From the NCBI GenBank assembly GCA_000934665.2, contig KZ538129.1, forward strand, positions 62,001 through 126,000: a stretch of 64,000 nucleotides of DNA, given 5' to 3'. The notes under the pieces were generated by a model, which did no database searches, had not been told where the DNA came from, and saw nothing but the letters and a program-made list of their open reading frames with translations. Position 1 is the first letter of the stretch. The number at the start of each line of letters is the position of its first letter. The DNA is from Catajapyx aquilonaris (Eukaryota). Positions 5,561 to 63,707 of this stretch are shown here, in pieces. Made by a program: the position numbers and the translations under genes.

Positions 5561-8218
5561 AAATATTTATTTACAATATCGCAGTTTCTTTCGCGATTTC
5601 CTGCATTTGCATTCAGTGCACCTGCAGTTACGAGACTTGAGGCGATGTGACGTGGCAACGTTATTGAAAATGGGGGAAACTGCTATTACGGTGTAGTCTT
5701 TGTTGCTTGTTTATTTGTTTATGAAGCAATCTAAATGCACACTTCGAGCAGCTGCATATTATCAGGGTGAGTCATCACCGTTCAAAGTTATCGCCTTATG
5801 TGGACGTAGGATGTGAAAACACGTGTATATTTTCCTTCTATTGTGCCAGTACAAAAAATATCCATGTTGTTTTACTGCACTTGCGAGTCTGGAAGGCGCG
5901 CCTAGTTGGCTGAACTGGTATGGCACAGTACATGTTCTAGGAGTGGTGCAAGAAGCGGCAGTGCATGCATGAAATAATAATGCACAGTGTGAATATTTTA
6001 ATCAACACATCCATACGAGCCTCTTTCTGCAGTTACACGCAACACCTAATTACATACGAGTTGCATAAGACCTGTATCCTTGATGTTTTCAAGACGAGTA
6101 TTTGACGTGTGCGATAAGTGTTTGTGCATAACATGCCACGTATATATTCCTTCTCATGAATAGAAATGAAACTAGTTCTGCGTGATATAAGCACTGTCAC
6201 AACCTTTGTCAGCAAGTGCGAAATTGTACGCTAGCGATTTTTTGTTTGTTTTTATATCACCATTTTTGATAAGTCAAACATTCCTGCCAGTAGATGTCAT
6301 TGCGAAGTACTTGAGAACGATGGCTCCAGATTGACCCCGGAATCTAGCCTGATGACTGTGATTGCCACACAGCCATCAGAGGTCAGTCATTAGTCTCCAA
6401 AGAGCCGCCATTAGCCTCAGGGATTGACCCTAGGGAATATATCTTTTTTTCCCCCACGTCTTTGAGTCCAGCTTTTTACCTTAGGACTTGTTAGTTTATC
6501 TGGGAATTATCTGGAAGCGATGAGTAATTGTATCCTGCCCTGGAAAAAAAATGTGCAAAAAAAACTGGAACCAGGTAGACTGGTCGGGGTCTAAGTACTC
6601 CAAATTCTCACATTCACGGAAATGCAATTTCCATGTACACACCAATAGGCGTAAGTGCCACCCGAGGAAATTTATCGCGGAAAAAAATGTCAACTTTTAT
6701 TGTCGAAGCATAAAACCAGGAACCGGTACCGGTACGACCTTTATGTGTAACACTAATGAGTCGGGCATGACAAAAGACGTGAGAAATTAGAGTCGGAGGT
6801 GCGAAATGTCGTATACGCACGTTTGAAAATGGTGGTGGACAGGTGGGATAGAAAGGAAGTGTGTGTAGGGGGGAACAAGGAGCACAGAGGAGCAGCTTCA
6901 CCTGTCTTTGTGACATGTGTGGGCGTCCCACACATATGCAAGGAAGAAAAAGGGTGCAGCTGCGTTGACTCCGGGGGTACTATTTCCGCTAGTTTATGAG
7001 CTGTGAAGTGCATTCAGTCTGTTACACTTCTTGCACAAAAAAAACTGTTAGATTCTTTAAAAATATTAAGTGCATCAAATTGTGTGTGTTTTTTTTTGAA
7101 TTTTCAGCAGCACTTTCCGTTGATGCTTATCCATACTGACCATGGCCCCGTACTTTTAGGGTTACTATAGTAGGGGCGGGATGGGTGGGAGGGATATAAT
7201 AAGGCTAATTAGTATTCGCAGCGCCGTCTTTATTAGTAGTATGCAAATTAATAGTAGCCGTTATTAGTAGCATTTGGGTTAATTAAACGGTGATTGTTCC
7301 CGTTGCAAAATGGCATCGCAGGTGGCGGGCCAAACGGCTCTTCTCGTTTGGGTGAGCGGGGTGTAAACGCCATTGCGAGTAGCGCTCATGTGATGACTAC
7401 GCCATTAGAGGGTATCGCAGGCTTGTCACTGGCACATCGCCTTTCCTATCGGGATACACTAATAATTTATGTTTCATGCCAGCGCATTCCTGTGGGTCGG
7501 CACATGTTACAACCAGGGTGGTAATTATGCTGTTTTGTCTTATCCGGTGACTGACAGCGCATCATGTGGTCAGCCAAAAGTACTGCCACGTGTAGCGTGA
7601 TGCTACACGTGGCGGTAATTTTTTACTTCTTCAAGATGGTAGCTTCTAGTGACGCATCATTTTTTTCGGACAGAAAGGGGTACCAGATTTGTGTGGAGAT
7701 GCCCTATGCTGATAAGAAAACGCAGCGATTTCTGTGAGCTTGTATTGGAGACCTTTATTACGACCGACCTCGAGCCCCGTTTTTGCTTACACCGTACATT
7801 ATGCTATAAATATTTGGTGAGGATGGCTTGTGGATCACGAAAGCGGCCCCCTCTAATCCTAAGAAACGTCATCGTATGTCGATACGAGTTATCGAGCTGT
7901 AGGGTCATTCATGCAGGTTATGACTATGTAATGCCCTCCTTTTTTTTGGAGGGTGGGTGAAGAGGTGCTGGTACGTAATAAAAATGATCCGGAGGCCAAT
8001 GACGATTAGAAATGAGCTTGGGAAGGCTGCCTCACACCTCTTATTCTCTTCCCCGCCGAAGAATCACATTCATAAATCCGTTGACGTTCCCTGTCCGCCC
8101 CCACTGGGGGGCCATAAAATCGTTATCATTTTCTAAATAGCCTTCATTATAGCGTTTTCATTATCTCGTACTCATTTAGCGGGAGTAATATATTCTTGGG
8201 TTTCATTGTCATTCTGAT

Positions 8219-8261
8219 TCTAATTCGGTCCTCCCCTCTTCTTCTCTCCTTCTAGGTAAGC
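8219..8261 (+). promoter_or_regulatory. candidate recursive splice site (ratchet point) RS1, AG|GT at 8255/8256
   Basis: ctaat branch-like motif, about 25-nt pure pyrimidine tract tcctcccctcttcttctctccttct, then ag|gtaagc. Confidence 0.7.
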
Positions 8262-8309
8262 GTTGACCCTTCTTCGTCATAAATGCCTTGGGGTGGAAGG
8301 AAGCTGAAG
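8256..8309 (+). other. cryptic 54-nt exon defined by RS1 and a downstream donor
   Basis: Ends at gaag|gtaaga (GT at 8310-8311); contains stops in all three frames. Confidence 0.55.
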
Positions 8310-10466
8310 GTAAGATTTATGACGATTTTTTTTTAAAAATTCGGAGACGGCGGGGGAGGGATACATGCAGCGTTGCCAATTTTCCAACATTTGCGTCGCA
8401 GCCTGGCCATCACCATGCGAAAGGCCCTGGTAAGATTAAGCTTGAAATATGAGGCAGTTTGTATGGGTTAGGCGGCTGGGTAGGAAAACAAGGCCGGTTA
8501 GGTATGCAGGAGGTGTCTCCATCACCACTCGCACCTGGAAGGTGGGAGGGAAGAGAGAAAAAAAGGTGTGGATCAGCAGGTGACTACTTGACATCAGAAA
8601 ACATTGGCAGCCTGGTACAGTATTGCCAATTGTAAATCAAAATGCTGCCAGTATTTACAGCCAGGTTTCGATACAAACGTGATCATTAATGAGGTCCCGA
8701 AGACACTTATTACATGAATTAGCAATTAAGGTAAGAGCCGGCTTTGAACCTACTTTTATGACTGTTGTTTACTTCCAACACCTTGTCGGATTATTGCGCC
8801 GCGTATATACACACATTGGGTGGGGGGAAAGAGGGTGAGACACCCCTATCCTTATCGAAGAACATGCAAGAGATCGAACAATGGGGCCTTCCTTCCTGCG
8901 GCTTCCCCCGAGTTTGGATGGAATCAATATTTTGTGCGGCCCGCAATTACATAAACAGCGCCATTGTCGAGTCGTTTTGACAATTCCTTTTGTGAGTAAG
9001 GGGCTGGCGGGTATTATCAGGTGCAAGGATCGCAGGTAGTGCTGGGTAGGTGTTGAAGGGCCATGGGGCTGCTGAAAACGTAATTTGCTAGACCCACCCA
9101 CCCCACCTACCTCACGTGCTGATACCAACTAAGGTGTTCTATATATGTAAGTAATATGGAAGCCCAGGATATACACTATATGGCAAAGACGTGGACCGAA
9201 TTCGAAAGGTGGGATTGAAGGTTCGTGTCTATCACGCGGGATCTTTTTGATGAGCTTATTTCTTGCCGGAGTTATCCAAGGTTGCAGTTTACGTCGGTGG
9301 GTACGTGATTTGCTTGCAGATGACCGGTTGTGTGCTTTCGGAAGGTCGACCCCTCAATGTTCCATTCTGAAAAATAGAAACGGAGTAATGTACTAGGATC
9401 GGACCATTTTTTCCCCCCAACACACGTATACACACACGCAAGTGCACTAATGGACCAAGTTTCTTGTACGCGATGAGTATGCGTAATGGGGCAACAGTGA
9501 CTCATTTATTTTTCCCAGAACTGTGTAGGCACTGTTTTTTTTTTGTAGGCGGTTGTAACAGGATGGACAATAATTAGGGATGACAATAAGGTCGATCACG
9601 TATCTGACAATTTTATTACTCGGAGGTATTTCAGAATAACACGTTATCAAGGGTTAGTAAGTCATTGTAGTGCGTGTGTATGTCACATCAAAATGACTGA
9701 ACCGGATATCAAGCTGCTTGTATTCCAATCAGTACCATTGTTACCGGGAACAACCGCGTGCTCCGATAATATTAATTTCAGATAGTGCTTGTAATTGGAT
9801 ACAATGGTTTTTTTTTTTGAGAGCGATATTAATTGTGGCTATAGTTTTGTGGAATTTTTGGTCTGATGACAGGGGGAATTGACAATGACACAATCTGGTC
9901 GATTGATCCTGTGCATGGAAGCAGGGAATAAAAAAAAAGTGAGTGAGAGCCTGTGAGGCTTAAGTGAGCCGGTTCAATTTCCGTGATGGTCTTTCGTGTG
10001 GTGCTTTTGAAATTCACCGAAGGGTCGATTTTCTGGTAAAGCCCGTGGTCCCTTGGGGGGACTGAAGGGGGGTGGGGGGGCCACACCCCGACGCTTTTTT
10101 AATCGGCCCACGAACCCCCCAAAAAACTTTTTTTTTACCCACAAGTCCACAGAGACAGTAGTCTCTTCCTCCCTTCAAAAAAAGCAGGAAAATATAGATG
10201 GAGAGACGGAGCAGGAGAATTGAATCAACAGCCGAGTATCCCTCGAGGAATGACCAGTGAGGCCCTGTCGGTTTATTAGGGGGAACATTTCATAAATCGT
10301 CAGCAAATACTGGCCCCTTTTTGGGAAACGTGACCTGAGTAAGAAGTATGCCAAATATGGCTGACCAGTGACCACCAGAATATTTTTTTAAAAAATATTG
10401 GAAACGCCAGTAAAAATTATTTAACTTTGTGTGTGGTAGATGGTGTGAATATAATATAGCATGATG

Positions 10467-11784: not shown

Positions 11785-12014
11785 NNNNNNNNNNNNNNNN
11801 NNNNNNNNNNNNNNNNNNNNNNNNNNNNNNNNNNNNNNNNNNNNNNNNNNNNNNNNNNNNNNNNNNNNNNNNNNNNNNNNNNNNNNNNNNNNNNNNNNNN
11901 NNNNNNNNNNNNNNNNNNNNNNNNNNNNNNNNNNNNNNNNNNNNNNNNNNNNNNNNNNNNNNNNNNNNNNNNNNNNNNNNNNNNNNNNNNNNNNNNNNNN
12001 NNNNNNNNNNNNNN
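11785..12014. other. assembly gap (230 N)
   Basis: N run flanked by poly-C. Confidence 0.99.
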
Positions 12015-17960: not shown

Positions 17961-17991
17961 CTTTAACTAGTGCCTTCCTTTGTAGGTAAGT
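17961..17991 (+). promoter_or_regulatory. candidate recursive splice site RS2, AG|GT at 17985/17986
   Basis: ctttaac branch-like motif, tgccttcctttg tract, tag|gtaagt (consensus donor regenerated). Confidence 0.65.
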
Positions 17992-19972: not shown

Positions 19973-21966
19973 GTAAGTAGCATAGTTGTAGTTTCTGGTG
20001 TATCAAAAGTAACGTGCATAAATGGGGGGAGTTGAGGGCAGTTACTCTTGGTACAACGCACGTAGAATTACAGCTGGGTTCACACGGGCCTCGTCTTTGG
20101 GTCGATACGCCCGTTTGAACTCCAGCTGATGTAGTCCAGTAGTTACACAATGTTTGATACAAACGTAGTCGGCTCCTCACACTCAGTATCAAGTAACACT
20201 GGATTAGTGTTTATGTGTATCTTTCTGGACCACATTTTAGTACCCACTCTTTTTTCTGACCCTCCTTCCTCCACACAAGATGGTCTCTATATGCCCCACC
20301 ACTGGCTTTCTCATGTTTCTGAACCGGCTTTGAGGGGTTGTTCCCAGAGTCCTTGACACCAGAAAACTTGATGAGTTTTTCAGAAACTCGCATTGCATTA
20401 TTGATGCGTTTTTGCACATACGTATATTTACATGGCTGAACTAGCTGCGTCTGATCCCAGGGGGAAGCACAGTCCAGCGGACTGGACTGGACTGGACTAG
20501 GGGAAAATTTTTTTGTGCTTTTTGGCGCTGGAGGCTTCCATTTTTGCTCGTTGGCTAGAAAAAGCAATGGGGCACATGCAGTGTTGGCCCTGGGCTGGAC
20601 TGGTCATCCATCAGGAGGGGCTAAGGCCCGACCTGATGTTTTAATTGGTTGGTGCCTGGCCGGCCATTCACGCCTCACTCCCACCCCTCTAATTGTTACG
20701 TCACCACGTGACACTAATTGTTACCTTTCTGCACGGCATGGGTAATCTGTGTGGGGTTGAGGCCCACTCAACCTTGGGAAATGAGGGGAGGATGAAAATA
20801 AGAAGAAGAAGAAGAAAAAATATATAGAAAGAAGCAGCTTAAAACCTTTTGTTTGAAGCCTGCTTTTTTGGGGGAGGAAGAAGGAAACTGATGCTATACT
20901 TAGATTGCATGGGCATTTTATTTGGGACGCGACTACCTCAATTTCGGCAGCCCCGATTTACAAAAATTGGGGGTGGGGATAAGAGCTGGGTTATTTGTGA
21001 ACATAGGTTTCGTGATGATATTTTTTGGGTAGCACGGGAGGATCATGCTTATATTGTTTGGAAAATGTAACAACAATTGGAATGTGCCCATGTCACCGAA
21101 ACTAATTCGTAAAATTTGATGCTAATGATATGCAATTGGTCCGGAACATCTCAACAGCATCAGTCAGAAGTGTGTGTGTGTCGTCTGATTGGAATGAAGA
21201 GTGTGTGATAGATGGGTATGTAATAGCAGCGCGGGGCGGCCCGTTTCCCAGTAGGGTGATTTATAGCCGAGGAGATTGGCGACATGTGAGTGTGTGTGTG
21301 TGTGAGACGGGTCCGAGAGTGAGCTGGGGATGAGTGACGCGACTGTTTCGGACACTCTAATTGGGTTGGCACTTGGCAGCCATGGGGACCTAACAGGCCG
21401 GAACAGAGGCGTCAGCCCCAGAAACAATTCCGTCGCCTTGATCCTGTACTACCCGCAACCCACATTGCATAGGGGTTTTTCACGGGGGTTAAAAAAAAAA
21501 TCGGCAGCAATTTTTTTTTTTTTTTTGGGGGGGGGGACATGGCTTCCTCCCCCATCCACCGGGTGCATAAATATTTGAGGGCGGGCTTGCAGCTAAACCA
21601 ATTGGTAGTGCGCTTTGGCGTGGTGGCGCTAGACTGGGGGCCGGTGCGGACCCGGCCCTTAACAAGATTTGTCGCAGGGGCCGGGGGATTGCTGCTGCGG
21701 CCGCCCCTTGAATTATTTAGCAAAGCCGGGTTGTTTATGGAGTTTGCAAAAGGGGTTGCTTTTCTATCCGAACTTGGGAGCAGAGGCACCACCAGACGGC
21801 CTGGGGGTTACATAAGGTGGAGGAATCTATACTGCCAATACTATCAGCTATTTACTGGTTGGGAAATAGAACCAGGGCTTTAAGGGATTATGAGATATGG
21901 CGTAATGAGGAAATATACTTATCGCGTGTCATTTTTTAATGTAATTGACGTATGCAGTTGGAGGAA

Positions 21967-22665
21967 ATCTTTGGACCTCGATGTGTGGCCATGAGTATAA
22001 TTATGGGAGGAAATAACATAAGCTGTCTGTCTGTGTGGGTTTTTTAAAAATCTGTCCGTAATGTAGCGTGCAAATGGCATATATTTCGTAATTGCGAGTA
22101 CGAGTAGTTCTTTTTTCATTCTTAGGGCAGTTGCATACAATCTGTTTGGTGATGTTGAAAATGTCTTCAAAAAAAGTCGACAAAAAAGTTAATAGCTTTT
22201 GTTGGTAGTCATGTTGGTGTTGCACGCGTGCATTTTTTGTAGCTACTGCAAGCATTCGCAGCAGATATCAAAATCATATTTACAACATACCAAAAATTTC
22301 TCTTGGTATTTTCTTGGATCTTTGGACCTCGATGTGTGGCCATGAGTATAATTATGGGAGGAAATAACATAAGCTGTCTGTCTGTGTGTGTTTTTTAAAA
22401 ATCTGTCCGTAATGTAGCGTGCAAATGGCATATATTTCGTAATTGCGAGTACGAGTAGTTCTTTTTTCATTTTTAGGGCAGTTGCATACAATCTGTTTGG
22501 TGATGTTGAAAATGTCTTCAAAAAAAGTCGACAAAAAAGTTAATAGCTTTTGTTGGTAGTCATGTTGGTATTGCACGCGTGCACTTTTTGTAGCTATACT
22601 GCAAGCATTCACAGCAGATATAAAAATCATATTTACAACATACCAAAGATTTCTCTTGGTATTTT
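21967..22665. repeat. recent tandem duplication, period 351 bp, two copies
   Basis: Copy 1 starts atctttggacctcgatgtgtgg at 21967, copy 2 at 22318; near-identical with a few substitutions and a 2-bp indel; AT-rich. Confidence 0.92.
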
Positions 22666-23040
22666 TCAACGACCCATTTTGCACATTTTCTTGTAGCTTG
22701 CAGTGTACAATATTTAAAATATGCAAACGATTGTTGTGCTGTAAATGTACTACAAGAATCATATGTCACTATGATTATGAACACAATTCAAGTCAGGTTA
22801 TTGTTTCAACAAACTGACCCTGAGTCCAAAGCTTTCTGATGCTGAATTCACATAGTGTTACATGTATTTCACTGTTCGTGTATTCCCACCCGAGCACTGA
22901 GGGGGTGTTAACGAGCGAGTGCACCTAATTTTGGGGAAATGTTCGGATGTGATGGCAGGAATACCATGGGATGGGCTTGATGTCACATGTTCACAGAGAG
23001 TGTTATGTACCATTCTGCACCTATGATTAAGTGAGAGAAA

Positions 23041-28809: not shown

Positions 28810-28958
28810 GTGACGCCAGCAATGCCAGTATCGGCAGTGGAGAGGGCACCGGTGAAGAAGACGACGACACTGGCAGCAAAAAGAACCAAAAGAAGAGAGG
28901 CATCTTCCCCAAGGTGGCCACCAACATCCTGCGAGCTTGGCTCTTCCAACACCTCACA
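28810..28958 (+). CDS. hth: homothorax/Meis coding exon (linker, homeodomain N-terminal arm and helix 1)
   Basis: Acceptor ttttctccccag|, donor |gtaagt; 149 nt, phase 1 to 0; translates (G)[49 protein letters not shown], near-identical to arthropod Homothorax as I recall it. Confidence 0.96.
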
Positions 28959-39508: not shown

Positions 39509-39619
<111 letters not shown>

Positions 39620-50708: not shown

Positions 50709-50727
50709 TTTTTTTTTGCAGGTGAGC
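50709..50727 (+). promoter_or_regulatory. candidate recursive splice site RS4, AG|GT at 50721/50722
   Basis: T9 tract then gcag|gtgagc, near the middle of the 24-kb intron 39619-63639. The tract is short and another AG lies just upstream. Confidence 0.5.
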
Positions 50728-63639: not shown

Positions 63640-63707
63640 GTTCATCAACGCCAGGCGTCGGATTGTCCAACCTCTCATCGACCAGTCCAACCGGGCGGGT
63701 GCTAGTG
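63640..63707 (+). CDS. hth: homothorax/Meis coding exon (recognition helix and post-homeodomain segment)
   Basis: Acceptor cccttcttgttcattacag|, donor g|gtaagt; 68 nt, phase 2 to 1; translates (W)FINARRRIVQPLIDQSNRAGAS(G), with the Meis-class WFIN (I50) signature. Confidence 0.94.

Follow-up and report, generated by a model that had tools for sequence, protein, structure and literature searches.

Ratchet points with cryptic RS-exons have been described in the Drosophila genes Ubx, kuz, Bx, ct, chinmo, and hth (10.1101/006163; PMC8605326). The branch points of fly ratchet points are mostly located at positions -36 to -21, and the ratchet segments have a mean length of 17,953 +/- 9,039 (10.1101/006163). 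TT is found at positions -5/-6 in 196 of 197 fly ratchet points. According to PMC8605326, a second donor located about 50 nt downstream defines the cryptic exon, and fly hth itself has a cryptic ratchet point, the reporter of which gave the skipped product. At this fly hth site the exon is still skipped even with the regenerated donor being the weaker one (PMC8605326). Stop codons and frame shifts are described as usual in cryptic RS-exons (PMC8605326; PMC5126111).

The Drosophila hth gene also has an exon 8 with the layout AG/ATG/GTAAGT and a second donor at 48 nt, a 3+48 form reported to be limited to Schizophora, and it encodes the homeodomain-less isoforms E, F, and I, which terminate either past an alternative exon 7' or past an extended form of exon 6 (PMC7392893, a report that does not mention recursive splicing). 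In the consulted literature, which consisted mostly of papers outside subscription journals, we found no account of the site described below, nor of recursive splicing of hth in species other than Drosophila. The nine supplements of PMC6110457 contain no entry for hth (FBgn0001235).

The window analyzed here is a 64,000-nt stretch of Catajapyx aquilonaris DNA that corresponds to positions 62001-126000 of a 138.5-kb contig (C242, KZ538129.1) from the 285.6-Mb genome. A Meis N-terminal family match is present on this contig upstream of the window, and mapping with full-length Hth homologs identified homothorax (hth) as 11 exons on the + strand. Exons 2 to 11 are 224, 142, 51, 51, 198, 136, 149, 77, 68, and 149 nt long (the last one to the stop codon), and these sizes fit the insect table in PMC7392893. 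Without the 54-nt exon discussed below, they form a single open frame, the product of which is 86% identical to mayfly Hth. The exon mapping and the intact frame support the gene identity proposed in the initial annotation, as well as the position of the site upstream of the homeodomain exons; the gene is an intact homothorax. In a tree of 30 proteins, this Hth is placed outside the winged insects, whose group has a support of 100/98, and pairs with one other protein (support 98/84). Two acceptors 18 nt apart precede the last hth coding exon (C242:130195-130213; L012), and both are probably used because homologs have the extra six residues. A Meis/PKNOX N-terminal domain is also encoded by another gene in the genome, at C3509:13269-18712 (L002, L003).

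The intron between hth exons 7 and 8 is 35,482 nt long and is the longest of the 10 introns in this gene. The candidate ratchet point is located on the hth sense strand within this intron and would split it into a segment of 14,928 nt on the side of the exon 7 donor and one of 20,554 nt on the side of exon 8. Table 1 presents the features of the site and of the surrounding gene.

Table 1. Features of the candidate ratchet point and of the hth gene (window coordinates unless a contig is given; a slash marks the splice position)
Feature	Position	Strand	Details
hth exon 7	C242:55192-55327		+	outside the window; homolog mapping
Exon 7-8 intron, part in the window	1-28809	+	between exon 7 and exon 8
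Branch-like YTRAY motifs	8214-8224	+	CTGAT (A at -39) and CTAAT at 8220-8224 (A at -33); motif match
Polypyrimidine tract	8229-8253	+	25 of 25 pyrimidines; TT at -5/-6
Fused acceptor/donor AG/GTAAGC, candidate ratchet point	8254-8261	+	AG at 8254-8255, GTAAGC at 8256-8261
Candidate cryptic RS-exon	8256-8309	+	54 nt; phase 1 at both ends
RS-exon donor AAG/GTAAGA	8310-8315	+	score 6.9
Weaker extra donor CTG/GTAAGA	8430-8435	+	174 nt past the acceptor, also frame-keeping; score 5.0
hth exon 8 (E11 in fly numbering)	28810-28958	+	homeodomain start; downstream acceptor of the intron
hth exon 9	39542-39618	+	homeodomain
hth exon 10	63640-63707	+	homeodomain end

Both branch-like motifs belong to a 68-nt AG-free zone upstream of the acceptor, and the motif closer to it has its A within the fly branch-point range, as judged by motif match. 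The joining of exon 7 to position 8256 would recreate the donor CAG/GTAAGC, and the 3' third of the 54-nt exon contains three GAAG motifs. The locus combines a sense-strand YAG/GTRAG, an intron of more than 11 kb with segments within about 3-60 kb, a pyrimidine tract with TT, and a branch motif, as in the fly sites. The branch motif, pyrimidine tract, fused signal, and second donor after 54 nt listed by the initial annotation are each found at their positions, and the anatomy, strand, and intron position agree with the arrangement that it had suggested, namely a ratchet point followed by a cryptic exon.

A repeat or transposon origin of the site and RNA structure as one of its features were both rejected. 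An origin from a repeat or transposon is not indicated, since the site has one match in the genome in a DNA search that skips common words. RNA structure around the site was no better than in shuffled sequences (z = -1.0, with 28 of 200 shuffles as good). Elsewhere in the exon 7-8 intron, a 230-nt assembly gap at window positions 11785-12014 could hide a small exon or a splice site, and near-identical translated stretches recur at approximately 21900-22800, suggesting a local tandem repeat.

The general matrix used for scoring the splice sites is approximate, so that only the ranks of the scores matter. The candidate site ranks first (score 16.4) of the 810 AG/GT positions in the 138.5-kb contig, both strands included; the runner-up scores are 10.8 on the antisense and 9.7 on the sense strand. 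Its acceptor at 8255 scores 12.5, above all 10 acceptors of hth coding exons (best 11.2); only three of the 7,054 AG sites in hth reach 12.5 or more, and the one at 8255 is the only one that precedes GTRAG. The regenerated donor, usually the stronger of the two at Drosophila-type ratchet points, scores 7.4 compared to 6.9 for the RS-exon donor, values that are close on this approximate matrix. By multiplying the component frequencies, we obtained a chance expectation of 0.01-0.05 such sites in hth, or 0.0002-0.0008 when the second donor is included, a rough estimate with thresholds chosen after the site was seen. The splice architecture exceeds chance. The gene structure, phases, motif anatomy, and rarity reported here are read from the DNA.

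Genome-wide, a strict pattern with a 14-pyrimidine tract and AG/GTAAG had 35 matches, compared to 13 for the reversed pattern and 17 for the non-donor control, i.e., only approximately a twofold excess over the latter. Examination of 30 of these 35 loci revealed a strong donor 30-90 nt downstream in 11 (10 of 29 excluding the candidate) versus 2.6% expected. The full cassette pattern of acceptor, donor, and second donor was found seven times in the genome, including the candidate, and not at all in the reversed control; the six other cassettes are at C6:145297, C230:119237, C376:4874, C579:51908, C1157:3677, and C2410:9171. Apart from the candidate, 10 exons have a second donor; seven of these have an open frame and might be ordinary small exons.

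Several weaker AG/GT sites were noted in hth. The second-best sense site on the contig, tttgtag/GTAAGT at window position 17985/17986 (+), scores 9.7 and has TT at -5/-6. It belongs to the same exon 7-8 intron, where it would divide the 20.6-kb segment into 9.7 and 10.8 kb, and it has a weaker tract, an AG at -17, and no strong second donor. Weaker candidates at 50721/50722, 34961/34962, and 45066/45067 (+) are located in the 24-kb and 10.6-kb hth introns. The first of these, with TT at -5/-6, is in the middle of its intron (11.1 + 12.9 kb); the other two are without TT at these positions.

For comparison with other arthropods, we used 29 metagenome loci with exon 7, comprising 20 genomic loci, which are from distant arthropods, and 9 transcript contigs. 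An AG/GT site of comparable quality was found in none of the 20 genomic loci, of which only three reach approximately 10 kb past exon 7. The two complete introns among them are both short, and the candidate lies 15 kb into its intron, so this is a weak comparison of conservation. One of the 29 loci has a 7-nt micro-exon-like motif.

Based on these results, we propose that the site is an intronic ratchet point. The splice-in/splice-out signal inside the 35.5-kb exon 7-8 intron makes it probable that this intron is taken out stepwise, in two steps or more, as in flies. In the features that can be read from DNA, the site looks like a fly ratchet point, with an unusually complete signature. By analogy with the fly work, the 8255 acceptor and the 8310 donor would first be recognized as a pair across the 54-nt exon. 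Exon 7 would then be joined to position 8256, removing 14.9 kb and regenerating CAG/GTAAGC. The regenerated donor would outcompete the donor at 8310 and splice to exon 8 at 28810, and the 54 nt would leave with the remaining 20.6 kb, with no trace in the mRNA. Rare use of the 8310 donor would give a message ending in ...SEA-G-K-R-stop, which by the same analogy would most likely be degraded. The sequence alone would fit either recursive splicing or plain skipping of a cassette exon.

The initial annotation emphasized that the 54-nt exon has stops in all three frames. These are present as written (TAA 8257-8259, TGA 8264-8266, and TAA 8280-8282) but are not notable. In random 54-nt exons starting with GTAAG, all three frames are closed with P = 0.30 and the frame relevant here is closed in 63%; all three are also closed in 3 of the 10 comparable exons elsewhere in the genome. 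Because hth exon 7 ends in phase 1, only G/GT AAG CGT TGA can be read, giving G-K-R-stop, and this frame-keeping exon has the TGA at 8264-8266 as its single stop in the reachable frame. The three-frame stops add little, since the GTAAG donor itself supplies one TAA, the chance level is 30%, and only one frame is reachable; for the same chance-level reasons, their interpretation as a designed fail-safe was rejected. The accompanying claim that inclusion would stop translation ahead of the homeodomain is supported, with the TGA in the readable frame and the homeodomain starting in exon 8. The TGA is 43 nt before the end of the 54-nt exon, and three further junctions and a long tail follow it, making decay the likely fate of the inclusion product and a likelier one than a stable product.

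The first rival explanation is that the 54 nt are retained in a real share of messages, either as a poison exon or as a source of an MH-only Hth ending in G-K-R, which we regard as unlikely. The 8310 donor would then win in some tissues, resulting in less full-length Hth through decay or in an MH-only protein. This reading is in agreement with the strength of the 8310 donor, which is close to the regenerated one, with the presence of three GAAG motifs within the 54 nt (P = 0.016, post hoc), and with the stop placed ahead of later junctions, as in poison exons. Some inclusion was seen in four of eight fly cryptic reporters, and the sequence of the exon can outweigh the strength of the donors (PMC8605326). 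Homeodomain-less isoforms are abundant in flies (PMC7392893). However, the stops are at chance level, and a stop exon after exon 7 was found in none of the nine arthropod hth transcript contigs, which are from other species. In flies, transcripts of the homeodomain-less class terminate before exon 7, and not by way of a stop exon with more introns after it (PMC7392893), and the link to this functional isoform class made in the initial annotation is not supported. The site is located after exon 7 and has a donor, in contrast to the terminal exon 7' and the extended exon 6 at which the fly transcripts end. The gene also has its own exon-6 read-through at C242:40045-40152 (L009), with 35 extra codons before a stop and the nearest AATAAA 2.7 kb further on; such a read-through is the route of the fly homeodomain-less isoforms F and I (PMC7392893). 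For the candidate site, the terminal-exon reading was rejected: the closest downstream AATAAA follows only after 1.67 kb, and this motif occurs at its background density (0.68 per kb). Because of this read-through and the lack of a poly(A) signal near the site, the homeodomain-less link is unsupported. Nothing in the analyzed sequence favors the poison-exon or homeodomain-less reading over simple skipping; if true, it would bear on Hth dosage.

An improbable second rival is that the 54 nt are a current or recently lost coding cassette, with 18 in-frame codons and a single TGA, that is kin to pancrustacean cassettes at this junction. The TGA would then have arisen recently, represent an allele, stem from an error in the assembly, or allow read-through, and skipping may still use the fused donor. 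In addition to the kept frame and the one stop in the reachable frame, this reading draws on homolog proteins, since decapod and krill Hth have a 17-residue cassette at the exon 7 junction that starts with G-K-K-S-P. Global alignment of the 18 codons to the decapod/krill cassette gave p = 0.034 and 0.007 versus donor-forced random intron, and the best-of-10-cassettes value of p = 0.037 indicates a weak resemblance. Arthropods also gain one to three exons in the interval after hth exon 7 (PMC3140891). In contrast, the donor motifs largely dictate the G-K and the final E, and eight of the 10 cassette peptides gave p > 0.18. At the DNA level, comparisons with the cassette of the nearest tree neighbor (p = 0.36) and with an insect-type exon 9 transcript (p = 0.57) revealed no similarity, nor did the comparison with the insect exon 9 peptide (p = 0.96). 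Other cassettes at the exon 7 junction of homolog proteins begin differently. A length divisible by three is found in 5 of the 11 comparable exons of the genome, and a frame-keeping 54-nt fly RS-exon is still skipped (PMC8605326). Insect-type exons 8 and 9 were not found in the exon 7-8 intron, minus the 230-nt gap at 11785, by a profile search (best E = 0.19), and tblastn of homolog linkers (best E = 0.042) and a micro-exon scan of the intron also found none.

It is very improbable that the arrangement arose by chance in a pyrimidine-rich intron and is ignored by the spliceosome, since, against the 17 AG sites in hth that score 9 or more and include strong unused acceptors, the possibility that about half of the strict genome-wide matches are background, and the selection of the site from a scan over many windows, stand the minute number of such cassettes expected in hth, the seven-to-zero ratio in the genome, and the correct strand, longest intron, and fly-like spacing and branch position.

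A more far-reaching idea, which we offer as a long shot, is that the slot after hth exon 7 is an old recursive-exon module that changed in evolution from silent to coding or back. Its coding state would be seen in decapods and krill (G-K-K-S-P) and in insects (exon 9, G-K-W), and the fly 3+48 exon 8 would be a coding version shifted by 3 nt; this assignment is similarly speculative. Equally conjecturally, the locus described here might hold a frame-keeping 54-nt version shut by one TGA. Several cassettes at the exon 7 junction start with G-K, the two residues that a fused GTAAR donor specifies when read in phase 1. In an insect-type transcript contig (L048:1740-1760), a micro-exon of 6 nt (AATTGG), also reported in aphid, is followed by an exon 9 starting with GTAAAT, a start that is donor-like in this one contig. 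If this idea were true, the lineage-specific exons of this interval would have had ratchet points as their nursery, and hth would have been spliced recursively before the winged insects arose. If the exon were homologous to the coding cassettes of other arthropods, exon birth and loss at ratchet points could be traced in one gene.

Use of the site as a ratchet point would by itself provide a further case of fly-type recursive splicing, in a gene with a Drosophila ratchet point and with an Hth that branches outside the winged insects. It would support an older origin of recursive splicing, with the mechanism itself unchanged.

Among the known systems, the homeodomain-less fly isoforms E, F, and I are similar in that the inclusion product predicted here would also keep the MH domain and lose the homeodomain. 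They differ in ending upstream of exon 7, whereas the product here would include exon 7, followed by the stop and four more exons. In vertebrate RS-exons with premature stops (as described in PMC5126111 and PMC8605326), the regenerated donor likewise competes with the exon's own donor and inclusion is thought to lead to decay. These exons belong to another lineage, and their inclusion has been observed, whereas the exon described here is known from its sequence. The Drosophila hth exon 8, a 3-nt micro-exon ATG within a 48-nt exon (PMC7392893), occupies the same interval after exon 7 in phase 1. It has an acceptor followed almost directly by a GTAAG donor and a second donor approximately 50 nt further on, and the two donors compete. 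The fly donor comes after 3 nt of exon, compared to 0 nt here, and both fly products are in-frame coding isoforms; the likeness noted here is one of layout. The fly ratchet points share with this locus a fused AG/GTRAG in a long intron of a developmental regulator, a long tract with TT at -5/-6, and a branch near -30. Also shared are a donor about 50 nt further on (54 here), segments of 15-20 kb, and a stop in the cryptic exon, and hth itself has a tested site in flies. The differences are that the host Hth branches outside the winged insects and that fly cryptic exons are mostly out of frame, whereas the 54-nt exon here keeps the frame. Most likely, the candidate functions as the Drosophila-type ratchet points do, with its cryptic RS-exon being skipped.
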